Below the pieces are notes generated by a model, which was not told the origin of the DNA, searched no databases, and saw only the letters and a program-made list of their open reading frames with translations. A program made the translations under genes and the position numbers. 64,000 bases of DNA from Candidatus Colwellbacteria bacterium (GTDB taxonomy: Bacteria; Patescibacteriota; Minisyncoccia; UBA6257; Colwellbacteraceae): positions 537,925 to 601,924 of the forward strand of contig JACOWZ010000003.1 in the NCBI GenBank assembly GCA_016176525.1, given 5' to 3'. Shown here piece by piece: positions 9,513 through 26,977 of this stretch (the stretch's first letter is position 1; every line of letters begins with the position of its first letter).

Positions 9513-9517
9513 AAAAT

Positions 9518-10138
9518 TTATATTTCAGAACTCTTTTGCGGTTGAGAATTTGGTTGTTGCAATTTTGACTGCACTGGATTATTTATTAATAAAATATCTA
9601 AATCTTTTGTATCTTTTAAATAAGCTCCATCAATAATATCTGTGACCAATCCGAATTTCTCAGCTTCCTCAGAAGATAGTACAGCTCCACCATGCACTTC
9701 TTTATTTACGATACTTTTCTTCTTTCCCGTTACTTTTGAAATTACCTCGGAATAATCATCAGTAATCCTTTGAATCAATTTTGCCATTTCGCTTAGTTTA
9801 GTCGGGTTAAATTGTCCATTAAGTGTTGCAATTGCTTCATGAAGTACAAAACGACAACTTGGTGCCGCAATTCTTCTTTGACCGGCGCAGAACATCATTA
9901 CAGCGGCGCTATCAACGTTCCCCATTCCAATTGTCGTTTTTGAGATATTGATTTGCCTAAGAAAATTGTATGCTAAAAGACCGTGATCAGATGATCCACC
10001 CGAACTTGATATCTGGAGAATTATCTCATTTATAGGTTTTTCTGGATTTTGTTGAGCAAGCTTAATAGTAATAAATTTTATTAGATCATTTACTGAACCC
10101 TCGGAAACATTTGCATAAAAATTAATTAATAATTTCAT
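9518..10138 (-). CDS. ClpP-like (S14/S49 clan SK) serine protease family protein
   Basis: ISSSGGSSDHGLLAYNFL resembles the ClpP NSPGG region. NVDSAAVMMFCAG resembles the ClpP active-site Ser context AASMGAFLL. RFVLHEA resembles the ClpP His region. A C-terminal Asp region SSEEAEKFGLVTDII is present. 206 aa, with no TM helix. Confidence 0.55.
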   Translation of the reverse strand: MKLLINFYANVSEGSVNDLIKFITIKLAQQNPEKPINEIILQISSSGGSSDHGLLAYNFLRQINISKTTIGMGNVDSAAVMMFCAGQRRIAAPSCRFVLHEAIATLNGQFNPTKLSEMAKLIQRITDDYSEVISKVTGKKKSIVNKEVHGGAVLSSEEAEKFGLVTDIIDGAYLKDTKDLDILLINNPVQSKLQQPNSQPQKSSEI

Positions 10139-10487
10139 AATTTTCTTCTAAAAGTTTTTTTATTATTTCTAATTGTTCCTTGTTTTGTTCTGATAACTCT
10201 TGAACTTGCCTAAGAAATTCCTCATTTATTTTTTGTGTTGTTTCAACAGATTCTATTTTCCCAGAATATTCGCTGTATGCGGCATTGTTATATCTCATTT
10301 GATCAAGGAACAAGCCAATCACCGAAATAATAACTGCAACCAGAGAAACAAGAACCGATGCCACCACCGCAATAAGAATGTTGTCAATTTTATCAAATCG
10401 ACTCTTTACTTCCGGAGGCATCCCAGTTACAGGAGCATCTCTTTCTGGAATTGTAATTAAGGGTTTTTCCATATCAATATATTCCAA
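10122..10487 (-). CDS. Small single-pass membrane protein with a C-terminal coiled coil
   Basis: The central hydrophobic helix is ILIAVVASVLVSLVAVIISVIGLFL. The C-terminus is Q/E/L-rich. It overlaps the next gene by 17 bp and the previous gene by 14 bp, so it is tightly coupled to both. Confidence 0.35.
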   Translation of the reverse strand: MEYIDMEKPLITIPERDAPVTGMPPEVKSRFDKIDNILIAVVASVLVSLVAVIISVIGLFLDQMRYNNAAYSEYSGKIESVETTQKINEEFLRQVQELSEQNKEQLEIIKKLLEENYEIIN

Positions 10488-10686
10488 TTATTACGTGGAC
10501 ATTATTTTCCTCTCGTATCTCTAAATCTCTACCAATATATTTGGATAAATCTATACCGCCGAAAGAAACATTTTTGAATCTAGCTCCAGGTCCGAACTGA
10601 ACACCACCGATTCTTATAATCTTTTCCTTCGATTCGATACTACCATCAGCATTTACATTGAAAACCTCGTGAAAATTGATGCGCAT
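10474..10686 (-). CDS. Small hypothetical protein of 70 aa
   Basis: ORF packed with a 4-bp gap after the mod stop and a 14-bp overlap with the next gene. I recognise no motif. Confidence 0.3.
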   Translation of the reverse strand: MRINFHEVFNVNADGSIESKEKIIRIGGVQFGPGARFKNVSFGGIDLSKYIGRDLEIREENNVHVIIGIY

Positions 10687-10690
10687 ATTT

Positions 10691-12853
10691 TTATATTTTG
10701 ACCTCTATCACCCTAGTGGTGTCATTCCCGAAAATATCGACGACTTTTACGGCAATTTTGTGTTTGCCTTTTGTAGCAACTTTTGGAGAAGTAACGAGGT
10801 CAAGATTTCTGTTCTTTTTGGTACGGAAACTCTGCCACTCGTTGTCAAAAATATAATCGCCCGTCCATACTTCTTTTTCCTCGCCACCTTCCACAACCTT
10901 GATGATTTCTTTTCTGCTTGCAAAATCAAAATCAACTGCCCAATAGTCAATCCAGTCGCTCCATTTTTTAGTCAAAATTTCTTTTGAAATTTCTTCAGTT
11001 TTCTTATCTTTTGAGATTTTTACCACCTGACCATCTTCTACCACAACTTTAGATCTACCGGGGCGCAATGCCTCGGCAATTTCGCCTGAATTGTCCTGAT
11101 TGTAGAAAACAGAAAAATTTATCAGTTCAATAGAAATTTCTTTGTCATTCCCTCGTCCTTTCACAATCGGTTTCACTTCAATAAACGCGACATCATAGAA
11201 CTTCACTTGACCCTTTTCTACCACCTTTCTGTCAAAAACTTCTCGCGGAATTATCCTAAAGGCGATATCAATGCCTTGATCTTTGTACTCTGTAAAATCA
11301 AGTCCCATTTCATAATCAAACCCAAGAACATCAACTTTAGTGATTCCTTTTTCTTTACACTCTTTTACGATGTCCTGCACGAATTTAGAAGAAACGGGAG
11401 TATTGATGGGTCCCACCGCCACAAGGCGATCTCTTTTCTTGCCGATAACATTCACGAAAGACTCTACTGGCTCGGCTTTGTATGCAGAGAGAATAAGTTT
11501 TACAAATTCCTTTTCTTTCCTTTCGGCTTGTCTGGCTTTTTCTTCCGCTCGCAAATCATCATTTGTCGCGAGGAAATTTTCTCTTTCATATCTTCCAACA
11601 TTCAAAATCTCAAAAGCTCTAAAGTCCCCCCCCTCTTTTTTTAGTTCTCTTTGCACGTCAATCATTCTTTTTCGTGAAGTATGTATGCCGAATTTACCCA
11701 AATCTGACCCAATCCATCTTCTCTGTAGTTTCTCTGCTACCTCTAATGTAGTCCCGGAGCCACAGAAAAAATCTGCTACTAAGTCATTTGGTTCGGTTGA
11801 AGTCTCAATTATTCTCCTTAACAATCCGAATGGTTTTTGTGTTGGGTAACCAAGATACTCGGATGAACCACTAATGAGCGGTTTCGTATCGTCTGCGTCC
11901 CATACATCTCTTACATAGACTTCGGCGTAGTGCTGATTAAATAGTTTATCTTTCAATCTATCCGGAAGTGCTTTTCTACTTGCAATACACTCTTCTATTA
12001 TTTTAATGTCTTTTTCTGTAAGATCGTTAATTTTTGCTTCATTTAATTTTGTGTCAATGAATGGTTTCTCGTATTTAATTTTTTCTTTCGTAGCTTTGAA
12101 AATATAGCCGTCTTTATTTTTTGCATAGTAGAAGATCGTATCGTGTTTTCGTGCATAGAATTTTTTACCAACTCCTTGAATACGATAACCCCACGTGATT
12201 TCATTTAATAGATTATCTTTACCAAAAATTTCATCTAGTACCAATCTCATATACGCATTAACTCTATAATCACAATGCACATAGATACTTCCATTGTCAG
12301 CAAGGAGTCCGTGCATTAGTCTTAGTCGTTCATAAATCATCGTGACAAAACTATCAGCACCCTTACCCCAAGTGTCGCGGTAGGCGATTTCTTCTATAAC
12401 TGACGGCTTTTTTGTAAAACTTTCTTCGTCCTCGCCATCTCCGATTTTAATGTCCATTGAAAAATCCGCGCCGACATCGAAGGGCGGGTCAATATAAATC
12501 AATTTCAAACCGCCCTGCGCCTCTATTTCTTTGCGAAGCGGACCGTTCTTAAGAGAGGAAAGAATCAGCTTATTGTCTCCCCAAATCAATTTATTCGTCC
12601 AGCCGGTAATTTGCCTTCCCGTTGTATCCCAAAGAGTGCCGGAATCTCCAAATTCTCCTTGTCGTGGTTCATCTATTTGTTCAATAACTTGAAAAGGCAA
12701 GACAACATTCGTTACCTCATTTGTCTTTCCGTTCCAAAGAAGCTCAACCTCTCTGTCATCGTCAAACAACAAAAACCGATATTTCTCCGGAAGCGGTTTA
12801 CCCACTTCCAAGTATTTCACAATATCTCGTTTTTCGTTATCTGTTAATTTCAT
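10691..12853 (-). CDS. mod: Beta-class N6-adenine/N4-cytosine DNA methyltransferase (Type III Mod-like) with a roughly 300-aa C-terminal extension
   Basis: Motif IV DPPF (LIYIDPPFDVG) precedes motif I FFCGSGTT, which is the beta-class order. The N-terminal LIWGDNKLILSSLKNG is typical of Type III Mod. The ORF track extends to a GTG at 13045 inside a perfect palindrome. The ATG at 12851-12853 (MKLTDNEKRDI...) is the more plausible start. Confidence 0.75.
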   Translation of the reverse strand: MKLTDNEKRDIVKYLEVGKPLPEKYRFLLFDDDREVELLWNGKTNEVTNVVLPFQVIEQIDEPRQGEFGDSGTLWDTTGRQITGWTNKLIWGDNKLILSSLKNGPLRKEIEAQGGLKLIYIDPPFDVGADFSMDIKIGDGEDEESFTKKPSVIEEIAYRDTWGKGADSFVTMIYERLRLMHGLLADNGSIYVHCDYRVNAYMRLVLDEIFGKDNLLNEITWGYRIQGVGKKFYARKHDTIFYYAKNKDGYIFKATKEKIKYEKPFIDTKLNEAKINDLTEKDIKIIEECIASRKALPDRLKDKLFNQHYAEVYVRDVWDADDTKPLISGSSEYLGYPTQKPFGLLRRIIETSTEPNDLVADFFCGSGTTLEVAEKLQRRWIGSDLGKFGIHTSRKRMIDVQRELKKEGGDFRAFEILNVGRYERENFLATNDDLRAEEKARQAERKEKEFVKLILSAYKAEPVESFVNVIGKKRDRLVAVGPINTPVSSKFVQDIVKECKEKGITKVDVLGFDYEMGLDFTEYKDQGIDIAFRIIPREVFDRKVVEKGQVKFYDVAFIEVKPIVKGRGNDKEISIELINFSVFYNQDNSGEIAEALRPGRSKVVVEDGQVVKISKDKKTEEISKEILTKKWSDWIDYWAVDFDFASRKEIIKVVEGGEEKEVWTGDYIFDNEWQSFRTKKNRNLDLVTSPKVATKGKHKIAVKVVDIFGNDTTRVIEVKI

Positions 12854-13010
12854 CTGTTTTTTATAAGAATCAGACTTATTATACACTCTTTTCTGTGATA
12901 AAATATACTTAAGAAGTATGCGAATATTCCCTAATAAATCATTTATACTAATACTCTCTGTTGCGATATTACTTGTGCAAATTTCGATTCTGGGGTTGAC
13001 AATGAAAGAT

Positions 13011-13048
13011 GGAGTGGCTAAAATCTCTGTAGAGATTTTAGCCACTCC
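13011..13048. promoter_or_regulatory. Perfect 38-bp palindrome GGAGTGGCTAAAATCTCTGTAGAGATTTTAGCCACTCC upstream of mod
   Basis: 18-bp arms around a 2-bp centre, seen directly in the sequence. It lies about 160 bp upstream of the preferred mod ATG. No T-run follows on either strand, so it is more operator-like than terminator-like. Confidence 0.4.
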
Positions 13049-13299: not shown

Positions 13300-14184
13300 T
13301 TAACTCGCCAATCTACTTACAAATCTGCATTTGAGATTGCAAAAACCGCCGGATTTTTTATAACACTCCTCGCATATAATATAGTGTCTGTGGCACACGT
13401 CATATGCACAATTTACATAATTTTCTGACTTTACTCCGCATCTCTCACAACTTGAAACAACCTCGTGTCTAGAATCTTCTGTGTTAAAACCTATTAAAAT
13501 CCTCTTATCAAAAACATACAGCTTGCCCTTAAAGTCTTCGTTTGGATATTTCTCCATATATGAGTGTATTCCGCCTTCAAGCTGATAAACATTTTCAAAT
13601 CCGTTTTGCATTAAATACCCCGAGGCCTTTTCGCACCTAACTCCACCCGTGCAAACTGTTAAAATCTCTTTGTCTTTTAGGTGTTTTATTTTGGGCAGAA
13701 ATTTTGGAATATCTCTAAAATTCGGTACATTGGACAAGATTGATCCTTCAAAATATCCACTTTTTTGTTCGTAGTCGTTCCGCATATCAACAATATAAAA
13801 TTCTTTTCCGCTCTCTATCCATTTTTTCAATTCTTCGGGCTTTAGATACTTTCCTGTTATGCGGTTTTCTGCATTTTCTTCGGTTCCCAGTCCGCTTGTT
13901 ACAATCTCTTCTCTTGCTTTGATGCTCAACTTAAGGAAAGAAGCGCCAGTTCCATCGCTATATTTAAAGTGAATTCCAGAAAACAACTCGTCGGAATTCA
14001 TTGCTTCAACATATTTTGCGATATTGTCTTTAGTGCCTTCAAGCGTGCCATTAATCCCCTCTTTGGAAATCAAAATTCTGCCCTTTAAGCCGAGACGCAG
14101 GCAAAGTTCGCGCTGATCTTGAACCGCTTTTATTGGATCAGCAACAAGCACATATTTATAATAGAGTATTACCTTAAAACTCAT
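13300..14184 (-). CDS. trhO: Rhodanese-domain tRNA uridine(34) hydroxylase TrhO (YceA/UPF0176 family)
   Basis: ILYYKYV...ADP...GRILISKEGINGTLEG matches the YceA N-terminus (ISFYKYF..ADP...GRVYLAHEGINAQI). A rhodanese Cys loop and a C-terminal CxxC...C cluster are present. The start was chosen at MSFKVILYYKYV. Confidence 0.7.
   Translation of the reverse strand: MSFKVILYYKYVLVADPIKAVQDQRELCLRLGLKGRILISKEGINGTLEGTKDNIAKYVEAMNSDELFSGIHFKYSDGTGASFLKLSIKAREEIVTSGLGTEENAENRITGKYLKPEELKKWIESGKEFYIVDMRNDYEQKSGYFEGSILSNVPNFRDIPKFLPKIKHLKDKEILTVCTGGVRCEKASGYLMQNGFENVYQLEGGIHSYMEKYPNEDFKGKLYVFDKRILIGFNTEDSRHEVVSSCERCGVKSENYVNCAYDVCHRHYIICEECYKKSGGFCNLKCRFVSRLAS
14045..14113. repeat. 69-bp direct repeat, copy A. 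It lies inside trhO, where it codes for ...GRILISKEGINGTLE...
   Basis: It matches 16342-16410 with 4 mismatches in 69 bp. Confidence 0.7.
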
Positions 14185-14223
14185 TACACGAATTCTAACA
14201 ATTATTGACACCTAGGTCTAGGT

Positions 14224-14637
14224 ATGTTACCTTGCATTAACCCAGTAAGAACTGGGATGTACCCTAAAAACAAGGAGTGGAAACAAATGCAAGTGAGTAT
14301 TTTGGTAGAAAAGGCTCTAGCCTACGAGAACCAAAACATGGTTAGCCGCTATACCGAACGGTATGGCGTAAGTATGGAAACTGCTAAGGTTCTCTTTGAG
14401 GAATGCAAGAAATTCCTCGTGGCATGCGCAAAGACGAAGGATCCCATCTCGCCACCCAACAAGGATGTTGACGAGATGTGGCACTTCTTCATACTACACA
14501 CGAAGGACTACGCAGCCTTTTGCGAGACCTACTTCGGCAAGTTCATCCACCACGTCCCGACGGACAAGGTGGAGGGCGTAAACTGCAACGACTGCTCGCA
14601 GAGCCCGCCGGATTGCACCTCGCCGGCACAGCCCTAG
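14224..14637 (+). CDS. Hypothetical protein in a GC-rich patch. The likely start is the internal Met at 14287, MQVSILVEK...
   Basis: ORF with a higher GC content than its neighbours. Overlapping alternate-frame ORFs at 14396-14581 and 14478-14672 are typical of a GC-rich insert. I recognise no motif. Confidence 0.35.
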   Translation: MLPCINPVRTGMYPKNKEWKQMQVSILVEKALAYENQNMVSRYTERYGVSMETAKVLFEECKKFLVACAKTKDPISPPNKDVDEMWHFFILHTKDYAAFCETYFGKFIHHVPTDKVEGVNCNDCSQSPPDCTSPAQP

Positions 14638-14658
14638 ATCAACTCCAAGACAACAACC

Positions 14659-14691
14659 GAGTCCAGTTATAAAAACTGGACTCTTTTATTT
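14659..14691 (+). terminator. Rho-independent terminator. Hairpin GAGTCCAGTT/AACTGGACTC followed by a TTTTATTTT run.
   Basis: 10-bp stem and a T-run 20 bp after the stop of the 14224-14637 ORF. Confidence 0.5.
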
Positions 14692-14713
14692 TCGTATTTT
14701 TCTCCTATTCTCT

Positions 14714-14741
14714 CCGGCTTATCACAACTGTGATAAGCCGG
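14714..14741. repeat. Palindrome CCGGCTTATCACAACTGTGATAAGCCGG. It is copy 1 of a pair flanking the HNH-like gene.
   Basis: Seen directly in the sequence. Arms of 13 bp. Confidence 0.6.
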
Positions 14742-14795
14742 ACAGGTTGTAAACCGGGAGTGGTATAATGTTTTGAGAATAACCGTAAGAAAACC

Positions 14796-15134
14796 GTGAT
14801 TAATCTTTGTAAACGGCATGGCCGAACCAAACACTATAAGCGCGCCGACGGTCCCCCTCGTTGCGGCAAATGCGCATATGCATATGTAGCGACAAATAGA
14901 GTCAGAAAAATAGATCGCCTCGCAGAGAAATTTAATACATGCAAAAGGTGCGGATACAAAGGGAGTATTGGAACCCTTAATTTTTATTATCCAAAAAGAC
15001 CCTACAAAAAGGCAAATTTGTTAGACCCAAGAAATTTGAGCCGTGCTTGGAACAAGATAGAGAATGAAGCCAAGAATTGTATTTTGTTATGCAGAAACTG
15101 TTATATAAAGTCTAGTGGCAAAGCCATCTATTAA
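14796..15134 (+). CDS. HNH-like zinc-finger nuclease-family small protein. The active-site His may be degenerate.
   Basis: CxxC pairs are present (CGKCAYAYV, CKRCGYKG, LLCRNCY). The C-terminal NLSRAWNKIENEAKNCILLCRNCY resembles the HNH xxLxxLCxxCN tail. It is flanked on both sides by related palindromes. Confidence 0.4.
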   Translation: MINLCKRHGRTKHYKRADGPPRCGKCAYAYVATNRVRKIDRLAEKFNTCKRCGYKGSIGTLNFYYPKRPYKKANLLDPRNLSRAWNKIENEAKNCILLCRNCYIKSSGKAIY

Positions 15135-15155
15135 CTTCGACTTATCACAGCTGTG
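15130..15155. repeat. Palindrome CGACTTATCACAGCTGTGATAAGCCG. It is copy 2 and starts right after the HNH-like stop.
   Basis: Seen directly in the sequence. It shares the core CTTATCACA(A/G)CTGTGATAAG with the copy at 14714. Confidence 0.6.
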
Positions 15156-15194
15156 ATAAGCCGAGGTTGGGTCGGAGTTAAGTTTTGTAGATTT

Positions 15195-15233
15195 GAAAAA
15201 TAAAAAAGCCGACGAGCAGAATGCTTCGTCGGC
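15195..15233 (-). terminator. Rho-independent terminator for the SPFH gene. Hairpin GCCGACGA(loop)TCGTCGGC with a U-run on the minus strand.
   Basis: 8-bp GC-rich stem followed, in minus-strand sense, by a T-run (A-run 15195-15207 on plus). It lies about 20 bp after the SPFH stop. Confidence 0.5.
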
Positions 15234-15252
15234 TAGAGGTGCCCTAGATCTA

Positions 15253-16176
15253 CTAGGTTGTGTTCCCCGAGTTTGACCACGGCACCGGAATGGCGAAGGG
15301 GGTCTCGTCTCCCACAAGGGTTGTGGGGACTTGGGATCCGCCAGCGATCCATGCCTCCAGCCACTTCAAGAAGAGATAGGCTTGTCCTTTCTCTCCGCTA
15401 GTAGCGGCAGCAAGCCTCTCGATGGCATAGCCTTGACCGTCGGCCTCAACCCTGGTTTGGTTCGCGATAATCTCCTTCTGCTTTAAGACAGCCAGCTCCT
15501 TCTGAACATCTCGTTCAGCGATAGCCGCCTTTTCAACAGCAAGATTGTATTCGCCTGTGAAGTCAAAATCCGTGAGACTTACCTTGTCCACCACGAGATT
15601 TTGCCTTTCCACATCCGCCGTAATACGCCTGATGATATCTTGCTTCACCAGCTCGCGGTTTTCGCCGCGCAGATCTTCAACTGCGAAGAAGTTCACTGCG
15701 CTTTTCACGCTGTCTTGTACCGCCGGAACCACCACCTTTCCCTCGTAGTTTATCCCGAGGGTTTGGTGGATAGTTTGGATCTTGGTCTCGTTCGGATGGT
15801 AGAGAACTGTTACCTCCGTGAAGACAGCTTGTTGGTCTAGCGCGATGCCTTCAGCCGTTACGGTGTAGGCTACCGAGCGAACGTCGTATTTTGTCACCGT
15901 ATTGAAGATGGGGGTGACCCACTGGAACCGGCCAGGTTCCTTAATCTCTAGATCGCCGTTGGCGTGGAAGACCACTGCTCGTTCTGTAGCATCCACGTGA
16001 AGTAGGCCAGAGGTGACGAAAATGAGGACGAAGAGCCCCACTAGCGCCATTCCGCCCCAGAGTAAGATCCCGGGCAAGTTGGGTACTCGTCCGTAACTTC
16101 CCGGCTTCGTCAGCGCGAAACGGCTAGGTCGTGGTTCATGCTCATCGTTTTCGTTTTCACGCGTGTTGCGTTGCAT
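15253..16176 (-). CDS. SPFH/band-7 (stomatin/prohibitin/HflC-like) membrane protein
   Basis: N-terminal TM helix, then an SPFH-like core (VVFHANGDLEIKEPGRFQWVTPIFNTVTKYDVRS...) and a C-terminal coiled-coil-like region. GC-rich. Confidence 0.65.
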   Translation of the reverse strand: MQRNTRENENDEHEPRPSRFALTKPGSYGRVPNLPGILLWGGMALVGLFVLIFVTSGLLHVDATERAVVFHANGDLEIKEPGRFQWVTPIFNTVTKYDVRSVAYTVTAEGIALDQQAVFTEVTVLYHPNETKIQTIHQTLGINYEGKVVVPAVQDSVKSAVNFFAVEDLRGENRELVKQDIIRRITADVERQNLVVDKVSLTDFDFTGEYNLAVEKAAIAERDVQKELAVLKQKEIIANQTRVEADGQGYAIERLAAATSGEKGQAYLFLKWLEAWIAGGSQVPTTLVGDETPFAIPVPWSNSGNTT

Positions 16177-16341: not shown

Positions 16342-16410
16342 GTGCCATTAATCTCCTCTTTGGAAATCAAAATTCTGCCCTTTAAGCCGAGGGGCAGGCA
16401 AAGCTCGCGC
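16342..16410. repeat. 69-bp direct repeat, copy B. It lies in the intergenic region upstream of the response regulator gene.
   Basis: It matches 14045-14113. The ORF-track start at 16342 (MPLISSLEIKILPFKPRG...) is an artefact of reading through this duplicated fragment. Confidence 0.7.
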
Positions 16411-16430
16411 GGGTTTGATATAATTTATCT

Positions 16431-17103
16431 AATGCGGCTTCTTGTTATTGAAGATGAGGAAGAGACTAGAGAGTTTCTTAAAGTTGCCTTAGAAGAGCAA
16501 TCTTTCGCGGTAGACACCGCATGTGACGGCGACAAAGGCGCTTATTTAGCGCGCTTAAACGACTACGATTTAATTATTCTTGACCACATTCTGCCCCTAA
16601 AAGACGGATTTGAAGTTTGCAACGATATAAGAAGCAGCGGGAAACACACGCCGATACTAATGCTTTCTGTAAAATCAGAGATAGACCACAAAATTAATCT
16701 TTTTGAACAGGGAATTGACGATTATGTAACAAAGCCGTTTTCTATGAGCGAGCTTCTTGCAAGGGTTAGAGCAATTTTAAGAAGGCCGAAAATTCTTCAA
16801 GAAGATGAAATAACAATTGACGACCTTGTGTTGAACGTTCAAAAACAATCCGTATCTCGCGGAGACAAGAAAATATATTTAACCAGAAAGGAATTCAGCT
16901 TGCTGGAGTATCTTATGCGCAATGCCGGGACCGTTGTTTCAAGGGGTATGATAATGGAACACGTGTGGGATTCAGAAAGCGATCCGTTTTCAAACACTAT
17001 AGAAACACATATTTTAAACTTAAGAAAGAAAATAGAGCTCCCTAAAAAGAGAAAGATAATCCACTCCGTACCGGGTAGGGGTTATAAAATAGACTTGTTA
17101 TAA
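16431..17103 (+). CDS. OmpR-family two-component response regulator (receiver plus winged-helix)
   Basis: MRLLVIEDEEETREFL...DLIILDHILP (receiver Asp). C-terminal winged-helix motifs YLTRKEFSLLEYLMRN and GYKIDL. The start was moved to MRLLVIED. Confidence 0.8.
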
Positions 17104-18998
17104 ACACTCATAAACTTAATAGTCTCTTTTCGCTCTTTAAGGGCTTTGTCTGCAGAGGCCTCTATCGCGCGCAAAAGTTTTTCGAATATTGCCGGATACT
17201 TAAGGATTTTATTTTTTTTAAGATTGTATCTCGCGGCATAGGTGTGCCTTTTTATTTCTTCGCACACCCCCGGCACTGTCTTTTCCCAGAATAACTTTCG
17301 CAAGTTTTTAGGCTCCGTGGATTTACTTAACCTAAGCAGTCTTGCGCCAACGGCATTTATATATCCCCTCTTTAAATCATCTTCCCAATCATGGGCATCG
17401 TCATTTAACTGGCGGGCAATTATATAGTTTTTAAAAAATCTTATTGTGTTTTGGACCTCGGGCGACTTTTCGCGGTAACCCAAGGCAAATAAAATGCCTA
17501 TCGGCCCCAATGCATGCCCAAACGATTTTTCTGCAAGCTGTAGATAATTGCCGAATTTCGGCAAAGTTATCCGGCTTCTGCAGTTTTTAACCTCCCAGGT
17601 ATTGGCGCTATCTATTGCATCAAATGTAGCGCGAGAAAACTCCATAAACCCGCTCGCTTCCGGCAAGATTGAGTCCAATATTGAAGAAGATTCCCGCAAA
17701 GAAATATTTGCGACACTTAGCGTCTCGGGGTCGCCTTCGCCGTCTAAAAAGTCGTCGTAAATTGTGTAAGCTATCCACCCAAACAGATTGGCCGCGCCGA
17801 ACCGAACTAACATATCGTCTGAAATGCCTTCGGCTGTTTTTCCCAGCGCTACCTTAAATAAATATGGCAAGAGTACGATTTGCCTGTCTTTATCGTTTTT
17901 CAGGGTTTTACGTATAATTTTTTCTGCCTGATTTTGCAAATCCGGGCCAGAGAACGCAAACCTGCGCCTTACTCTACGCACAATTTTGGCATATATTTTA
18001 CTTTCGTTCATTCTACTATTTATCACTGCGCTCTTAACTTTGGTTTCTTTTGGCTCGTTTAAAAATTTATTTATTGCCTCCAAACACAAAGCAGTTGTTG
18101 TAGAAGCCGAGCCTGCATAAAGCGTTTTCTTTTTTGTCTTCATCTGAAAATAAAAAGAAAATGGCCTCCAACCGCCGTTTTTACCCTGGGTTTTAAGAAG
18201 ATAACCAATGCCTTTGGTAAGATTTTCTCTATGTTTAAGCCCCGTTAGATTTATTAACGTTGAGATTGCAAGCGCAGTGCGCAGCGGGTTTTCCCAACCG
18301 CCGCTTGGCTCTTGTTTAGACAAAATAAGCTTTACAATTTGATCGGTCTTTTCCCCTTTATAGAACCTAGAAATAAAATATGCAGCTGGGTAAATTTTGT
18401 TATATGGAAATTCGTAATCCTCTTCGTCAATAGATTTTTTAATAAAAGCGATGACCTTGGGCAAAAATATATCTTGAAGGGAAAGAAAATAGGCAATATT
18501 CGCGTTTACAACCAAATCTGTGTCATTCCAAACGTTTCTTCCCTCTTCGGGGACAAGCCACATATCGTACGGGCCGCCCTCGCTTTTTTCGGCCGAGGTG
18601 AGCATTGTTACAATTTTTGCCATAACATCGCCGCTGAACAAACGCGGGTGATATTCATAAAGCGCGGCAAGCGCGCAAAACGTGTCGTCTAGGTCGTCTG
18701 GATACGGCTCTTTTTTGTACCAATGTGACTTTCTAAACCAATAATTAAATGACCAATATTCACTCTTTTCTTTCAACAGAAAATCAGCAGACTTCTTTTT
18801 AATTTTTTTTGATCTATCTCCACCGATATTGATAAGTGAAGAAAGTACTATGTTTGTCGGCACTATTGCCGGAACAGTTTTAGCGCGCGAATAGTCGTCT
18901 AATTTCTTGGATACCAAACACAAAAAACTGCCGTTCTTTTCTTGGTCTTTGGCTAAAAAGCCTAACCCTTTGCCAATTGCTGATTGAAGATTATTCAT
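17082..18998 (-). CDS. Two-domain isoprenoid-synthase-like protein. The N-terminal domain is an alpha/alpha-toroid (squalene-hopene cyclase or prenyltransferase type) with a DxDDT motif. The C-terminal domain carries two DDxxD motifs.
   Basis: N-domain: QW-type repeats KGLGFLAKDQEKNGSF, LILSKQEPSGGW and KGIGYLLKTQGKNGGW, plus PDDLDDTFCALAAL (compare the class II DxDDTA motif). C-domain: IYDDFLDGEGD, and about 118 aa further on, QLNDDAHDWEDD. This spacing resembles FARM/SARM or DDxxD/NSE spacing. 638 aa. Confidence 0.45.
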   Translation of the reverse strand: MNNLQSAIGKGLGFLAKDQEKNGSFLCLVSKKLDDYSRAKTVPAIVPTNIVLSSLINIGGDRSKKIKKKSADFLLKEKSEYWSFNYWFRKSHWYKKEPYPDDLDDTFCALAALYEYHPRLFSGDVMAKIVTMLTSAEKSEGGPYDMWLVPEEGRNVWNDTDLVVNANIAYFLSLQDIFLPKVIAFIKKSIDEEDYEFPYNKIYPAAYFISRFYKGEKTDQIVKLILSKQEPSGGWENPLRTALAISTLINLTGLKHRENLTKGIGYLLKTQGKNGGWRPFSFYFQMKTKKKTLYAGSASTTTALCLEAINKFLNEPKETKVKSAVINSRMNESKIYAKIVRRVRRRFAFSGPDLQNQAEKIIRKTLKNDKDRQIVLLPYLFKVALGKTAEGISDDMLVRFGAANLFGWIAYTIYDDFLDGEGDPETLSVANISLRESSSILDSILPEASGFMEFSRATFDAIDSANTWEVKNCRSRITLPKFGNYLQLAEKSFGHALGPIGILFALGYREKSPEVQNTIRFFKNYIIARQLNDDAHDWEDDLKRGYINAVGARLLRLSKSTEPKNLRKLFWEKTVPGVCEEIKRHTYAARYNLKKNKILKYPAIFEKLLRAIEASADKALKERKETIKFMSVYNKSIL

Positions 18999-20361
18999 TT
19001 GAAACCGGGAATTCCACTATAAATGTTGCTCCAGCGTTAACTTTGCTAGAAACACTAATGCTGCCGCCGAAATCTTTCTCAATAATACTTTTAGTCATTG
19101 AAAGGCCTATGCCTATTCCCTCTTCATTTGTTTTGGTGGTAAAAAATGGCTCAAAAATCTTAGTTAAGTTCTCTGCGGGTATTCCCGCGCCATAATCTAC
19201 AACTTTAAGAACGAGTTTTCCGTCTTCTTTGTATAAATACACGGCGATTTCTCTTCTTGCATTACTACCGGAATGTGAATATGAATCAATGGCGTTGGCA
19301 ATTAAATTTAGAACAACTTGGTTTAACCGCACCGCATCCCCAAAAATACTAATTTCGTCTTGTGCCGAAAAATGCACCTTAATCTTTGCTTTTGACGCTT
19401 TATATGAAAGGATGCTGATAATATCTTTAATTTCTTTGTTTACAGAAAAGACTTTCTTATTTGCTTGCCTTGCCAGTTGTTTACGCACCGCAATCACCAA
19501 ATCCTGCAGTTTGCGAGCTGCTCCTGTTGCTCTCTCTACATATTTGTTGTTTGTCGTGTTTTTTAGTTTTTCGGTATTTAACGAAACAGAATTTAGGGGA
19601 TTCATAAGGTCGTGAAATATGCCTGCGCTTAGGCGGCCGAACTCTGCAAATCTGTAAAGTTGGCTTATCTTTTCCACTTGTGCTTCTTTTAACTCTTTGG
19701 TTCTTTCTTCCACCGTTATCTCCAGCGAATCGCGTTCTTGCTTAAGCTCCGCTTCGGATTTTCTTGCCCTTTTTAAAGATTTCTCTATCTCGCGGTTAGA
19801 GAGCCAAGAAACAACGGCGATAATTAATAAAACAACTGCTATAAAAATTGCATTTGCCATATTTAACAATTCCAATCTCCAGTAAGAGTCTGGTGGCAAA
19901 ATTGAGTTAATCTGTAAATAAGCAACAATTACTATAAAAAACGCAGTAAACCCAGCCGTAAAAAAAGCGAACCTAGTATTAACCAAAATTCCAGACATAA
20001 CTATTATTAGAGCGTACACGAGCAAGCCATCGGAAATGTCTACACCGTACTTAATAGCCGTATACGAATTTAAAAGAAAGAAAACTCCAAGGAAAACTGT
20101 AGATGTTAGCGTTGAAAACCCCTTTCGCGACAACGTATACAGGACAACAAAAAAAGAAAAGACAATAAAAACAACTCCGGCTGACATTGCGTTGTACAAA
20201 CCCATAATCCACTTAATCAGATTCATTAAAAAAGCGACAAGTGATAAGCTGATTATGGACAGCAATAAAACATTGAGTATAAACTCACGCCTAGCTTTAT
20301 CCTCGTTTTTTGAAACGGGCAAAACAAGTCTCCTAAAAAGAGTTATAAAACGTTTTACCAT
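18991..20361 (-). CDS. Sensor histidine kinase with a multi-TM N-terminus (about 6 TM helices), HisKA and HATPase_c domains
   Basis: H-box FHDLMNPLNS. HATPase motifs VLNLIANAIDS (N-box) and DYGAGIP / GIGIGLS (G-boxes). Its stop overlaps the start of the 17082-18998 gene by 8 bp. Confidence 0.75.
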   Translation of the reverse strand: MVKRFITLFRRLVLPVSKNEDKARREFILNVLLLSIISLSLVAFLMNLIKWIMGLYNAMSAGVVFIVFSFFVVLYTLSRKGFSTLTSTVFLGVFFLLNSYTAIKYGVDISDGLLVYALIIVMSGILVNTRFAFFTAGFTAFFIVIVAYLQINSILPPDSYWRLELLNMANAIFIAVVLLIIAVVSWLSNREIEKSLKRARKSEAELKQERDSLEITVEERTKELKEAQVEKISQLYRFAEFGRLSAGIFHDLMNPLNSVSLNTEKLKNTTNNKYVERATGAARKLQDLVIAVRKQLARQANKKVFSVNKEIKDIISILSYKASKAKIKVHFSAQDEISIFGDAVRLNQVVLNLIANAIDSYSHSGSNARREIAVYLYKEDGKLVLKVVDYGAGIPAENLTKIFEPFFTTKTNEEGIGIGLSMTKSIIEKDFGGSISVSSKVNAGATFIVEFPVSNE

Positions 20362-20582: not shown

Positions 20583-22604
20583 CTAAAGATTAACAACAGG
20601 TAACGCTATGAAAAACGTTGTCTCGCTCGGCTTAGAGGTAAACCAAACTTTACCGCCCATTAATTTTAAGTACCCCATTGCAATATAAAGCCCCAAGCCC
20701 GCACCGGGAATTTTAGTTGTGTCAAAATTATGTCCTCGGAAAAACTTTGTAAACACAAGTGCTTGCTCCTCTTCTAAAATACCGATGCCGCTGTCTCTAA
20801 TTTGGACAATACATTCCTCATTGTTTTTGTCTGCAGTCACCTCTACACTGCTGCCTTCGCGCCCATATTTTACGGCGTTGTCTAAAATCTCAAATAAAGC
20901 CTGTGATAAAAGCTTTTCGTCGGCTTGTATTTTAATATCTTCTCCTATACTAGTTGTAATATCCGGAAGCTCTCCACTGAATTCCTTGTTAATTTTGGCA
21001 ATTACGCCCTTAGTAAGCTCTCCTAAATTTATGGTTTTTTTCTCAACAATTATGCGGCTTTGGTCAATTCTAGTAATAGAGAGCAGCTGATCGGACATTT
21101 TTTGAACACTGCGCGCCGAAAAAATCGCTGTTTTAATTAAATCATTGCGCTTTTTATCATCTTTTGTTTCAAGTGCCAGCTCTAAACTCCACATTCCTTT
21201 ACTAACAGGAGTTCTAAACTGATGCGCGGCATAAGTAAAATCTGACCGCAGCTGCATAGTCTCGCGCTCTTTTGAAACATCGCGAAACACCACAATTACA
21301 CCCTGAACTTTTCCATTTACATCAAAAATAGGCGAGGCGCTGTCGCCTACGGGAATTTCGCTTTTATCTTTTTTAATAAGGATTGTTTTATTAGACATCT
21401 GGGCCGGTTTTCCGCTGAAGAATACATCATTAATAAAACCCACAGCTTCAGAGCGATCTTTCTCGCGCACAAATCTAATATATTCGCGAAACGACTTGCC
21501 TATAAGCTCTTCTTCTTTCCAACCAGTTAAAGTTTCTGCCGCTTTATTTAAAAATATTATGTCCCAATTGCGGTTCATTGCCACTACTCCGTCACCAATG
21601 CTACGCAGTAATTGTCTTTCTCTTTCTCTGGAGATATAAGTTCTTGAAAAAGCTTCTATTACGAGATAAGTAAATCCGGCTATAAAAAACCAAAGCGCCG
21701 CAAGCACAAACACCTCGCCGCGCAACTGCCTGTTGGATTCATTAAAAAATATCTGTGAATTTTCTTCAACCGCTGCCACCCAACCATAGTTTTTTACCGG
21801 CGCCGTTGCAATAACATTTTCTATACCAGATTTATCGCGATACAAACCAACTGCACCTTTTCCGCTAAGGGTCTGGCTTATATAATCTAGCTCTGACAAA
21901 TTAACAATGTCACCCTGACTGGGAATCTTTGGGTGCGCGGCCACTTGGCCCTCACGGTCTGTAAAAATTAAGTATCCGGAGCCAGTAATCTGTACTGTTT
22001 TTGCCCATTCAAAAATAGTATCTAAATTTATTTGCAAAACCAAAACTCCAATATTCTCTCCGCCGCTGGATTTAATTAAAGAGGACACTGCAACGACATT
22101 ATGCCTGGGTTCGGCTGTTCTTTTGTATATGCGCGAAATATATGGTCCGTCGGTTTTTGTTGTTCCCACAAACCAGTCGCGAAACGAAAAATCCATTCCC
22201 CGAACTCCCGGAAGAGCTGGAGTGTCGGCAGTAAGCATACCTGCCATATCCGTTAAGAAAACCCGTTCAATAAATGGGAAATCCCGCGGAACATTTTGCA
22301 TAATTTCAACCGCCTCTTGCCACTTTTTTTCACTCACTAGTTTGCTAAACTGCACACGCGTTGAAAGCGATTTTGTAATATCAACTAGCCGGTTAAACCG
22401 TTCTTCTAGATTTGAGGCTGCAAGTTGCGCAACTGTTTCGCGTCTCTCAAGAGTAATTTCTGTGTATTTGCTTCGGTTTTCAAAGTGATAAAACGCCATC
22501 ACCGCTGCAGCAGTTATTAGAATAACTGCAAAAATACCAAGTTTTGCAAGCCATATTTTCTTCCGATGAAATAAAAATTTAACAAAACGCTCAAAGTAAT
22601 CCAC
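20583..22604 (-). CDS. Sensor histidine kinase with an extracytoplasmic (Cache-like) domain, a PAS domain, HisKA and HATPase_c
   Basis: An N-terminal TM helix and a roughly 250-aa periplasmic region, then a second TM helix. PAS region SIGDGVVAMNRNWDIIFLNKAAETLTGW. H-box AHQFRTPVS. HATPase N/G boxes ILDNAVKY and GAGLGLYIA. Confidence 0.75.
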   Translation of the reverse strand: MDYFERFVKFLFHRKKIWLAKLGIFAVILITAAAVMAFYHFENRSKYTEITLERRETVAQLAASNLEERFNRLVDITKSLSTRVQFSKLVSEKKWQEAVEIMQNVPRDFPFIERVFLTDMAGMLTADTPALPGVRGMDFSFRDWFVGTTKTDGPYISRIYKRTAEPRHNVVAVSSLIKSSGGENIGVLVLQINLDTIFEWAKTVQITGSGYLIFTDREGQVAAHPKIPSQGDIVNLSELDYISQTLSGKGAVGLYRDKSGIENVIATAPVKNYGWVAAVEENSQIFFNESNRQLRGEVFVLAALWFFIAGFTYLVIEAFSRTYISRERERQLLRSIGDGVVAMNRNWDIIFLNKAAETLTGWKEEELIGKSFREYIRFVREKDRSEAVGFINDVFFSGKPAQMSNKTILIKKDKSEIPVGDSASPIFDVNGKVQGVIVVFRDVSKERETMQLRSDFTYAAHQFRTPVSKGMWSLELALETKDDKKRNDLIKTAIFSARSVQKMSDQLLSITRIDQSRIIVEKKTINLGELTKGVIAKINKEFSGELPDITTSIGEDIKIQADEKLLSQALFEILDNAVKYGREGSSVEVTADKNNEECIVQIRDSGIGILEEEQALVFTKFFRGHNFDTTKIPGAGLGLYIAMGYLKLMGGKVWFTSKPSETTFFIALPVVNL

Positions 22605-25456: not shown

Positions 25457-26977
25457 ATGGCTGATATTAAATTAGGTAAAGAGAAAGACGTAGTCTACTT
25501 TGGCAAAACCAGTTTTCGCAACGAACAGCGCGTTTTTGGCATAAAGCGCAAAGACCGCCGCCAGCATATGTATGTAATAGGCAAAACCGGCACGGGTAAG
25601 TCTGTGCTTTTGCAAAACTTAGCGTTGCAAGATATTGCAAACGGCGACGGGGTTTGTATTGTTGATCCCCACGGAGAATTTGTAGAAACCATTTTAGAAA
25701 AAGTGCCAAACGAGCGCATAAAAGACGTTATATATGTAAACCCCGCAGACTCGGATTTTCACGTTGGGTTTAACCCGCTGGAGCTGCCAGACCCAAAATA
25801 TAAGCATCTGATTGCATCCGGCTTGATGGGAATATTCACTAAAATATGGGCAAACGTCTGGTCTGCCAGAATGGAATATATTTTAAATAACATTATTCTT
25901 GCGCTATTAGACACACCGGGCTCAACCTTGCTTGGCATACCAAGAATTTTAGTTGATAAAACCTATAGGCAAAAAATTGTAGATAATATTAAAGACCCGG
26001 TTGTAAAAGCCTTTTGGGTGCATGAATACGAAAGCTGGCAAGAAAAATTCCGCAGCGAGGCAATAGCGCCGATTCAGAACAAAGTGGGCCAATTTTTATC
26101 CACATCTATAATTCGCAACATTGTAGGCCAGCAAAAAAGCACTTTTGACATATACAACCTTATGAACGCGAGAAAAATACTTTTAGTTAACGTTTCTAAA
26201 GGCAGAATCGGCGAAGACAACTCAAAGTTATTGGGAGCAATGTTTATTACAAAAATACAGCTTTCTGCCATGGAGCGCGTGCGTATACCCGAAGAAGAGC
26301 GCAAAGACTTCTTTTTGTATGTAGACGAGTTCCAAAACTTTGCAACAGACTCTTTTGCAGACATTCTATCAGAGGCCCGCAAATATAGGCTAGATCTTGT
26401 GCTTGCACACCAATACATAGGCCAGCTTGTAACAGATGTTTCCACAAAAGTACGCGATGCCGTATTCGGCAACGTTGGCACAATGGTAATATTCCACGCC
26501 GGGGCAGAAGACGCGGAGTTTTTAGAGAAGGAACTTACACCTGAATTTAGCGCAGATGACCTTGTAAAACTGCCAAACTATACCGTATATGTTAAGTTAA
26601 TGCTAAATGGCGTAACTACCCGGCCTTTCTCAGCACACACACTGCCGCCGATAGAGGTTGAAGAGAAAGAGAAAACCAAAGAAGAAATAATAAAAACCTC
26701 AAGAAAACTTTATTGCAGACCAAATAAACAAATTGAAGCAGAAATTAATGAGTGGAGCGGCATGATTATGGGGCCAGAAGCCGTACGCCGCCAGCTTAAA
26801 CAAACTCCAACACGGTATAGTAGGCCACAAGCAGGTAGAACTAAAAACCCGCATACAATTTCTCTTAGAGAGTTAGTAAAACCAGAAGAAACTCCAAAAC
26901 AACCTAAGCCCGAGAAGGTTGATAAATCTGCACTACGCGAGGTATTAAGCGAGGCCCTTAAGGATAAAGACAAGTAG
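25457..26977 (+). CDS. VirD4/TraG/TraD-like (type IV secretion coupling protein family) P-loop ATPase
   Basis: Walker A GKTGTGKS followed by CIVDPHGEF. Walker B-like FLYVDEFQNF. The all-alpha insertion and C-terminal LAHQYIGQL region are typical of TrwB/VirD4-like ATPases. It has no N-terminal TM helix. Confidence 0.5.
   Translation: MADIKLGKEKDVVYFGKTSFRNEQRVFGIKRKDRRQHMYVIGKTGTGKSVLLQNLALQDIANGDGVCIVDPHGEFVETILEKVPNERIKDVIYVNPADSDFHVGFNPLELPDPKYKHLIASGLMGIFTKIWANVWSARMEYILNNIILALLDTPGSTLLGIPRILVDKTYRQKIVDNIKDPVVKAFWVHEYESWQEKFRSEAIAPIQNKVGQFLSTSIIRNIVGQQKSTFDIYNLMNARKILLVNVSKGRIGEDNSKLLGAMFITKIQLSAMERVRIPEEERKDFFLYVDEFQNFATDSFADILSEARKYRLDLVLAHQYIGQLVTDVSTKVRDAVFGNVGTMVIFHAGAEDAEFLEKELTPEFSADDLVKLPNYTVYVKLMLNGVTTRPFSAHTLPPIEVEEKEKTKEEIIKTSRKLYCRPNKQIEAEINEWSGMIMGPEAVRRQLKQTPTRYSRPQAGRTKNPHTISLRELVKPEETPKQPKPEKVDKSALREVLSEALKDKDK

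Follow-up and report, generated by a model that had tools for sequence, protein, structure and literature searches.

A beta-alpha fusion protein of the Candidate Phyla Radiation as a candidate bifunctional isoprenoid cyclase linked to a two-component system

Background

Enzymes that join a class II terpene cyclase site to a second, diphosphate-processing site on a single chain include two described groups close to the protein considered here: the gamma-beta-alpha diterpene cyclase/synthases, of which a survey by Pfam screens found five fused examples among 15,498 bacterial species and none in the Candidate Phyla Radiation (CPR) (PMC11469919), and AsDMS, a HAD-TCbeta drimenol synthase of Aquimarina spongiae (Protein Data Bank (PDB) entries 9mhs, 9mlo and 9m7d-f). 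Two evolutionary surveys of class II cyclases omit the CPR, one of them stating that squalene-hopene cyclase (SHC) was not found there (PMC12414744, PMC7306690), and full-text literature searches returned nothing relevant linking CPR, Patescibacteria, Parcubacteria or Saccharibacteria to terpene synthases or cyclases. The subject of this report is a gene in a 64,000-nucleotide stretch (the window) of the 645-kb contig JACOWZ010000003.1 of Candidatus Colwellbacteria, which encodes a 638-residue fusion protein with an N-terminal domain of class II cyclase type and a C-terminal domain of prenyl synthase type, and which overlaps the gene of a sensor histidine kinase. With a probability of roughly 45%, the fusion protein is a cytoplasmic bifunctional beta-alpha isoprenoid cyclase and diphosphate-ionising enzyme, of an architecture not previously described, that is tied to a two-component system.

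Results and discussion

A two-domain protein with a conserved combination of motifs

The open reading frame (ORF) named in the original prediction, which was made from the window sequence without database searches, is matched exactly on the minus strand, with its ATG at 18996-18998, and re-translation from the coordinates recovers the motifs that had been listed for it: DxDDT, three QW-like repeats, and DDFLD and DDAHD at a spacing of 118 residues (D415 to D533). The product is entry P0001 of the homologue set by identity, and its AF2 model (predicted local distance difference test score (pLDDT) 90.6) consists of two domains joined by a disordered linker, as follows.

17082..18998, minus strand: gene for the 638-residue beta-alpha fusion protein (ORF list; MBI2013824.1, 'hypothetical protein', Candidatus Colwellbacteria)
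18054..18998, minus strand: N-terminal domain, residues 1-315, a single (alpha/alpha)6 barrel of class II terpene cyclase beta-domain type
18015..18053, minus strand: flexible interdomain linker, residues 316-328, with pLDDT <50 and a length that varies in the family alignment
17085..18014, minus strand: C-terminal domain, residues 329-638, an all-helical isoprenoid-synthase alpha fold of the trans-prenyl diphosphate synthase structural type

The motifs are conserved across 115 orthologues with 34-66% identity to the reference, the sample on which all residue counts below are based. When the fusion protein is shuffled 20,000 times with its composition preserved, DxDD[TA] arises in 1.2% of the shuffles, two DDxxD motifs 100-160 residues apart arise in 0.055%, and both together in none (0/20,000). 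The motif combination is confirmed as a real and strongly conserved feature of the protein.

The N-terminal domain resembles class II terpene cyclases

The N-terminal domain carries the following features.

18681..18701, minus strand: DxDDT general-acid motif P100-D-D102-L-D104-D105-T106 (PDDLDDT), from the translation, with D104 as the predicted proton donor
18402..18404, minus strand: Y199, predicted to hydrogen-bond with the general acid, conserved in 115/115 and aligned with Y427 of AsDMS
18168..18215, minus strand: best QW-type repeat, KGIGYLLKTQGKNGGW, from the translation, with sub-threshold matches to SQHop_cyclase_C/N and to SHC in the PDB over residues 234-280
18924-18971, minus strand: weaker QW-like repeat, KGLGFLAKDQEKNGSF, from the translation
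18294-18329, minus strand: weaker QW-like repeat, LILSKQEPSGGW, from the translation

Scanned as a single sequence against Pfam, NCBIfam and the PDB, the fusion protein gives sub-threshold matches only, to one QW-like hairpin or squalene-hopene-cyclase repeat, but a profile of 40 family members matches the cyclase domain of AsDMS among PDB sequences (E 2.3e-9, residues 26-310), and terpene cyclases are the only matches of the N-terminal domain profile in the PDB. A few homologues score narrowly above the cut-off of PF13243; homologues P0069, P0073 and P0085 also bear a precomputed Pfam match to PF28380. The fold of the barrel is closest to that of known class II cyclases, and other toroids trail by about 8-9 Z units. 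The beta(gamma)-alpha architecture that had been proposed stands in its beta-alpha part but not in its gamma part, for there is only one alpha/alpha barrel, of about 315 residues, and no gamma domain.

In the profile alignment, D331, D333 and Y427 of AsDMS fall on D102, D104 and Y199, and PDDLD(333)TT of AsDMS falls on PDDLDDT of the fusion protein. Variants of AsDMS at these three residues, including D333N and Y427F, are inactive, and D333 is the general acid (PMC12365925). D102, D104, Y199 and Y86 are each conserved in 115/115 orthologues, T106 in 114/115 and D105 in 112/115. An aromatic lining appears to be shared as well, since F318, Y319 and F328 of AsDMS correspond in the alignment to Y86, W87 and Y99, all at least 96% conserved. 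These comparisons of sequence and predicted fold support the assignment of the N-terminal domain, as a prediction, to the beta-domain type of class II terpene cyclases.

That the domain shares no more than an ancient fold with the cyclases, being a generic alpha/alpha toroid (glycosidase-, LanC-, prenyl-protein-transferase- or thioester-domain-like) with a function unrelated to isoprenoids, is very improbable. Such a reading could draw on the failure of the window protein to pass any curated family cut-off and on matches, some of them above cut-off, to the A-macroglobulin thioester-containing domain (TED) in 15/40 members and to pectate lyase in 7/40. It is opposed by the lead of class II cyclases over other toroids, by the PDB profile matches, which are to terpene cyclases only, by catalytic residues that align in register and are invariant, by the lack of a CGEQ thioester motif, by the isoprenoid-synthase fold of the fusion partner, and by the recurrence of canonical prenyl synthase genes as neighbours. 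The original prediction had itself allowed for an unrelated toroid; instead, class II cyclases proved to be the nearest folds, and the C-terminal domain proved to have an isoprenoid-synthase fold. The TED and pectate-lyase matches were rejected as guides to function because they span only about 80 residues (one or two helical hairpins), because of the fold ranking, and because CGEQ is missing.

The C-terminal domain has a prenyl-synthase-type fold

The C-terminal domain carries the following features.

17742..17756, minus strand: first Asp-rich motif, D415-D-F-L-D419 (DDFLD), at the C-terminal end of the long helix 394-418
17376..17402, minus strand: second Asp-rich motif, D533-D-A-H536-D537-W-E-D-D541 (DDAHDWEDD), following A528-R-Q530, from the translation
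17523..17696, minus strand: conserved basic residues R435, R474 and K/R491 (the last followed by the invariant S492); like K/R529 and K/R590, they are candidate ligands of the diphosphate

The predicted structure of this domain is nearest to trans-prenyltransferases and not to class I cyclases, as its fold neighbours show, listed here with Z scores and ranks.

Trans-prenyltransferases: 23.4 to 15.7, ranks 1-39 (best: 274 residues aligned, 2.8 A)
First class I cyclase: 14.5, rank 40
Class IB synthase 5yo8: 14.0, rank 45
Squalene synthase HpnC: 13.2, rank 53

The best neighbours include the long-chain solanesyl, decaprenyl, nonaprenyl and heptaprenyl synthases. Within the first motif, D415 and D419 are conserved in 115/115 orthologues and D416 in 102/115; within and before the second, Q530, D533, D537 and D541 are conserved in 115/115, H536 in 114/115 and D534 in 113/115. 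Basic residues are found at five further positions (R435, K/R491 and K/R529 in 115/115, R474 in 107/115 and K/R590 in 100/115), S492 is present in 115/115, and N466, E469 and H495 are also invariant or nearly so.

Aligned by hhalign with a profile of 15 isoprenyl diphosphate synthases (IPPS), the second half of the domain shows weak similarity (E 1e-3, probability 22%): in the alignment, A528-x-Q530-x-x-D533-D534-x-x-D537 falls on the second aspartate-rich motif (SARM) of IPPS, AFQxxDDxxD, and D541-x3-G545 falls on DxxxGKxT, an 11-residue deletion between the SARM and D541 having removed the GK loop. The N-terminal half of the domain alone gave no significant match to IPPS, and the whole domain against IspA and IspB gave a probability of 1%; in global mode, hhalign wrongly registered the first motif on the SARM, an effect of the internal pseudo-symmetry of the fold. 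The triad D533-x3-D537-x3-D541 also has the register of the (N,D)Dxx(S,T)xxxE motif of class I synthases, but consists of Asp at every position, and hhalign puts it on the SARM of IPPS instead. Models of class I terpene synthases match 5/40 members at E <=0.01, the window protein not among them, and two members narrowly exceed gathering cut-offs: P0003 with 26.6 against 26.3 (PF03936) and 24.2 against 23.7 (PF19086), and P0037 with 25.5 against 23.7 (PF19086). The residues by which IPPS bind isopentenyl diphosphate (IPP) were not found: the loop equivalent to GGKRxR (367-373) is unconserved, no RRG follows the first motif, and the GK loop is deleted. The isoprenoid-synthase character that had been claimed for this domain is borne out in its fold and Asp-rich motifs, with a structure of the prenyl diphosphate synthase type rather than the classical class I cyclase type, and the domain is read here as prenyl-synthase-type, probably keeping a site for Mg2+ and an allylic diphosphate while having lost the site for IPP. 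The IPPS-fold proteins that turned into terpene synthases in insects and fungi are a precedent for such a change (PMC6140472, PMC7484799).

The same residues bear on an improbable alternative in which the C-terminal domain would elongate dimethylallyl diphosphate with IPP into the substrate of the N-terminal cyclase, by analogy with fungal PvCPS. The two DDxxD motifs 118 residues apart would suit a prenyltransferase, as would the alignment of the second motif, with its preceding A-x-Q, to the SARM and the resemblance of K/R491-S492 to the KT motif of IPPS. However, the three elements of the IPP-binding signature are missing, Pfam polyprenyl_synt (PF00348) matches 0/40 members even at E 0.01, profile-profile similarity to IspA/IspB and to the IPPS of the CPR is weak or absent, and a separate canonical IPPS, which would be redundant if the C-terminal domain elongated chains, adjoins the fusion gene in 10 loci.

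The gene is coupled to a sensor kinase and a response regulator

Two signalling genes flank and overlap the fusion gene.

18991..20361, minus strand: partner sensor histidine kinase of 456 residues with HisKA and HATPase_c domains and about six transmembrane (TM) segments with short loops (Pfam, hydropathy, junction sequence)
16342..17103, plus strand: convergent OmpR/PhoB-type response regulator (Pfam Response_reg and Trans_reg_C), with a 22-bp overlap with the 3' end of the fusion gene

The junction sequence bears out the 8-bp overlap that had been noted between the fusion gene and a 6-TM kinase, the kinase stop codon TAA lying at 18991-18993, and the regulator converges on the 3' end as had been described. 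In residues 27-184 the kinase has six hydrophobic segments, five of them strong and one weaker; its first 190 residues match no family and contain no recognisable sensor domain, and conservation within its membrane domain gives no clear ligand-site signature. The regulator ORF as listed opens at a GTG at 16342, but NCBIfam alignments begin at residue 31 (MRLLVIEDEEE), and its true start is probably the ATG at 16432. Scans for promoters and terminators returned matches at chance level only.

A sample of 79 related loci gives the kinase link a firmer footing than a single locus could: in 67/79, a kinase orthologue of 450-500 residues (E mostly 1e-80 to 1e-150) lies immediately upstream on the same strand, overlapping or within 100 bp, and most of the loci lacking it are truncated by the end of their contig. 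In 54 loci the gene of an OmpR-type regulator immediately precedes that of the kinase in the same orientation; in 5 loci, as in the window, it sits downstream and is convergent. According to neighbour clustering, 16/79 loci have a fully canonical trans-polyprenyl diphosphate synthase, with GGKxIRG, HDDIIDxxxxRRG and FQIxDD, no more than 7 kb away; in 10 loci, which belong to several CPR lineages, its gene immediately follows the fusion gene in the same orientation, at a distance of -73 to +4 bp. These neighbouring IPPS score best against models of geranylgeranyl diphosphate (GGPP) and short-chain synthases, and those in which the first aspartate-rich motif (FARM) was matched have S, A or G at position -5, where IspA has Tyr. 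Together with the mevalonate pathway reported for most Microgenomates (PMC6107057), they indicate that CPR bacteria are not devoid of isoprenoid metabolism, a refinement of the assumption, made at the outset, that these bacteria generally lack an elaborate one.

It is rather unlikely, though this genomic context invites the idea, that the protein is a signalling accessory that would bind an isoprenoid diphosphate (for example a polyprenyl carrier lipid or its precursor pool, possibly with slow turnover) and report its occupancy to the sensor-less 6-TM kinase. Other histidine kinases are fed by cytoplasmic accessory proteins, and here the kinase has only short loops and a stretch of 190 residues that matches no family. 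The overlapping or abutting genes in 67/79 loci imply co-translation in matched amounts, the module is kept as a unit across the CPR superphyla although isoprenoid genes are adjacent in a minority of loci, and the C-terminal domain keeps its predicted diphosphate/Mg2+ site but not the condensation machinery of IPPS. Against an accessory role, D102, D104, Y199 and the aromatic lining are absolutely conserved, as catalysis demands and to a degree that a binding module would not need; the contact between the kinase and the protein is a postulated one; and the membrane domain of the kinase has no striking ligand-site signature.

Several other neighbours deserve mention. Just upstream of the kinase-cyclase pair in the window is an orphan second sensor kinase (dCache, PAS, HisKA and HATPase; 20583-22604, minus strand), whose position is not conserved in related loci. 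An SPFH/Band_7 gene (15253-16176, minus strand) adjoins the regulator, and one related locus (L003, 2006-4374) has Band_7/flotillin and NfeD genes nearby. Flotillin, isoprenoids and a kinase meet in membrane microdomains of Bacillus. As a conserved feature, linkage to Band_7/flotillin was rejected, a phmmer search having found 0 matches across the 79 loci. An MsbA-like ABC exporter of about 580 residues lies about 4.7 kb downstream of the cyclase gene in 14/79 loci (for example L009, 6780-8573), mostly on the same strand; it is possible that it exports or flips the product, or that its position is a coincidence. In two Saccharibacteria loci (L054, 6272-7309, and L062, 8944-9981, both minus strand), the gene just downstream on the opposite strand encodes a divergent IPPS-like protein that has YQxxDDxxD and does not match the FARM/RRG pattern, and which may be another non-canonical enzyme of prenyl-synthase fold.

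The family is widespread in the CPR

The taxonomic distribution is broad within the CPR. A word-index search for homologues of the fusion protein returned 733 matches, of which the best 120 are all full-length, with 43-66% identity, and the named ones among these all belong to Patescibacteria; when one genome of each GTDB species was scanned, relatives turned up in at least 230 species. Carriers belong to Parcubacteria, Microgenomates, Saccharibacteria (including the complete chromosome CP025011.1), Doudnabacteria, Moranbacteria and CPR2, and the family is apparently restricted to the CPR. The same module is found in records titled Methylomirabilota, Sulfotelmatobacter, Vitreimonas and 'uncultured Gammaproteobacteria' (L039, L055, L057, L007, L011, L023 and L053), which are probably mislabelled Patescibacteria bins, because they have 36-52% GC and the same synteny; they include contigs of 1.3-1.4 Mb.

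An exhaustive hidden Markov model (HMM) search with the C-terminal domain alone, against representatives clustered at 50% identity, found about 1,680 clusters, 1,160 of them with E ≤ 1e-30. Nearly all of the best 150 clusters carry the domain at about residues 320-650 of a protein of about 650 residues. The fusion appears to be obligate, because the few short matches that seem to consist of the C-terminal domain alone are fragments that begin inside the tail of the N-terminal domain. Some homologues have been named automatically as 'terpene cyclase/mutase family protein': annotation pipelines have caught the resemblance of the N-terminal domain and missed the architecture and its context.

Proposed mechanism and order of reactions

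The favoured reading, that of a bifunctional cyclase and diphosphate-ionising enzyme, starts from the observed fold, homology, residue conservation and synteny, from which we infer the following catalysis, substrate, order of steps, product and kinase signal. A separate canonical polyprenyl diphosphate synthase would supply an all-trans prenyl diphosphate, predicted to be C20 or longer because of the small residue at position -5 before the FARM. In the N-terminal barrel, D104, held by Y199, would protonate the terminal C=C bond, and protonation would set off a class II cationic cyclisation in the aromatic-lined cavity (Y86, W87, Y99, F282 and Y294). The two Asp-rich motifs of the C-terminal domain would bind a Mg2+ cluster and the substrate diphosphate, which R435, R474, K/R491, K/R529 and K/R590 may help to clamp, and this domain would then ionise or hydrolyse the diphosphate, with release of a cyclic terpene or terpenol. 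The hydrophobic product would enter the membrane. Either the product or the precursor pool may be tied to envelope or membrane signalling, because the gene is translationally coupled to an intramembrane-type kinase in a conserved regulator-kinase-enzyme module.

A number of observations weigh against this scheme. The catalytic roles of all family members are predicted ones. The window protein lies under all Pfam and NCBIfam cut-offs (18.8 and 14.2 bits for SQHop_cyclase_N/C, where the cut-offs are about 26, and 17 for TIGR01787, where the cut-off is 323). The clamp that holds the diphosphate in AsDMS is lost from the N-terminal domain, where R378 is replaced by the invariant W157, R380 by D159 and R425 by P198, and the position of R513 is variable. 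The chemistry of the C-terminal domain is read from its motifs and fold alone: no solved structure matches it significantly in sequence (its profile gave only chance matches to Mdm4 in the PDB), and its alignment to IPPS is the weak, second-half match given above. The window ORFs that were scanned (6.8-38.5 kb) include no isoprenoid gene, all being housekeeping or defence genes, and no IPPS is found anywhere in the 64-kb window. Mevalonate genes are reported to be rare in Parcubacteria, the group to which the window organism belongs (PMC6107057). Coupled in translation to a kinase of low abundance, the protein looks more like a signalling accessory than an enzyme of bulk lipid synthesis.

The lost clamp has a further consequence: because it is not conserved, the beta domain may not accept a substrate with a diphosphate head group, which weakens the class-II-first order. 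In the reverse order, the alpha domain would first strip the diphosphate from a prenyl diphosphate, perhaps a long-chain one, and the beta domain would then cyclise the diphosphate-free hydrocarbon or alcohol from its omega end. The sesquarterpene route of Bacillus runs in this way, the class IB synthase YtpB acting before the class II cyclase SqhC. Besides the replacement of R378 by an invariant Trp, the presence of several long-chain synthases among the best fold neighbours of the C-terminal domain points in this direction, as does the deposition of 8paj as a 'squalene-hopene/tetraprenyl-beta-curcumene cyclase'. However, the characterised fused class II/class I enzymes, which have the same beta-to-alpha order, all perform the class II reaction first (PMC11469919), and K78, R89 and R211, the only well-conserved basic residues of the N-terminal domain, could form an alternative site for the head group. 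The reverse order is unlikely on balance, yet with the clamp missing from the beta domain it remains a serious alternative.

Other features of the window

A row of genes at 6819-13045 (minus strand) encodes a ResIII helicase (897 residues), a ClpP-like protease (206 residues) and a 784-residue N6/N4 DNA methylase; the row resembles a defence island or a restriction-modification locus of type III-like kind, in which the ClpP-like gene in the middle is odd. Local GC is 0.47 at 14001-16000, compared with 0.37 in the preceding 12-14 kb block, and the ORFs at 14224-14637 and 14796-15134, the latter Cys-rich, have no Pfam match. A VirD4/TrwB-like type IV coupling ATPase (25457-26977, plus strand) is encoded amid housekeeping genes (GlmS, EF-P, SecDF, DnaK/DnaJ/GrpE, RecR and DnaB).

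Significance

It is conceivable, though doubtful, that CPR bacteria produce a cyclic terpenoid membrane lipid of their own, a compact surrogate of hopanoids or sterols, by means of this beta-alpha synthase, and that the intramembrane-sensing two-component system of the same operon sets or senses its level. If so, there would be a lineage-wide circuit for membrane homeostasis or host interaction in bacteria that are reported to have no squalene-hopene cyclases and are unable to build most lipids, and a third independent solution for class II cyclisation without a gamma domain, joined in this case to an alpha domain between prenyl synthase and terpene synthase.

For terpene enzymology, the protein would be a new domain architecture built from known kinds of domain, and an IPPS fold without IPP-binding motifs fits the sort of intermediate through which terpene synthases are postulated to have arisen from prenyl synthases. 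Bacterial fusions of class II and class I domains are thought to be very rare (the five in 15,498 species); the CPR family would be far more numerous, yet the Pfam screens used do not see it. As regards the biology of the CPR, this is among the few conserved lineage-specific modules that pair a predicted enzyme with a two-component system, and it suggests that an isoprenoid product or signal has gone unrecognised in organisms about whose membranes and envelopes little is known. Several genomes encode, right beside the fusion gene, a synthase that may supply its substrate.

Comparison with known systems

AsDMS resembles the fusion protein in having a beta-only class II domain without gamma, a D-x-D general-acid motif, a Tyr partner and an aromatic lining that align residue by residue, and a flexible link between the cyclase and a second, diphosphate-processing domain. 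The two differ in that the partner is an N-terminal HAD phosphatase in AsDMS and a C-terminal isoprenoid-synthase alpha domain in the fusion protein, which has no HAD domain; AsDMS has DxDTT where the fusion protein has DxDDT, identity is about 20%, and the Arg/Tyr clamp of AsDMS (Y373, R378, R380, R425 and R513) is not conserved. We know of no two-component-system context for AsDMS. Other class II cyclases, namely MstE (6sbb), which has a DxD motif and a meroterpenoid substrate, 8paj and 8pak (Archangium/Cystobacter) and 6ij1 (the 'prenylcyclase' of Actinoplanes), are stand-alone enzymes, none of them fused to an alpha domain.

The gamma-beta-alpha diterpene cyclase/synthases (CPS/KS of plants and fungi, abietadiene synthase, and the bacterial CseDCS, ChjDCS and StrDCS) likewise have a class II site and a diphosphate-ionising alpha site on one chain, in the same beta-to-alpha order, with DxDD in beta and DDxxD in alpha. 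However, they are proteins of about 750-850 residues with the class II site at the beta-gamma interface, whereas the fusion protein lacks gamma, and their alpha domain is a classical class I cyclase with NSE/DTE, whereas that of the fusion protein has an IPPS-type fold. The CPR family fails Pfam screens of the kind used in the bacterial survey of such enzymes (PMC11469919). In fungal PvCPS, a prenyltransferase alpha domain is joined to a class II beta-gamma unit, but PvCPS retains gamma, and its alpha domain is a full GGPP synthase equipped with the residues that bind IPP, unlike the CPR protein, whose C-terminal domain has no IPP site. The described architectures do not include a gamma-less one in which a class II beta domain that looks active is joined to an alpha domain, and no published description of one was found.

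The trans-IPPS (OsSPS3, 9jqs; GGPPS, 5jfq; IspA/IspB) share with the C-terminal domain the two Asp-rich motifs on equivalent helices, the A-x-Q-x-x-D-D-x-x-D sequence and a KT-like K/R-S pair, but identity is 11-16%, and GGKRxR, RRG and the GK loop are absent from the C-terminal domain. To our knowledge, a trans-IPPS fused to a class II beta barrel has never been reported in bacteria. The terpene synthases of insects and fungi that resemble isoprenyl diphosphate synthases (IDS-like; PMC6140472, PMC7484799) differ from the fusion protein in being eukaryotic, stand-alone, clearly related to IPPS by sequence and without a class II partner; they likewise have an IPPS fold that has given up IPP condensation and ionises a prenyl diphosphate, as is proposed here for the C-terminal domain of the CPR family.

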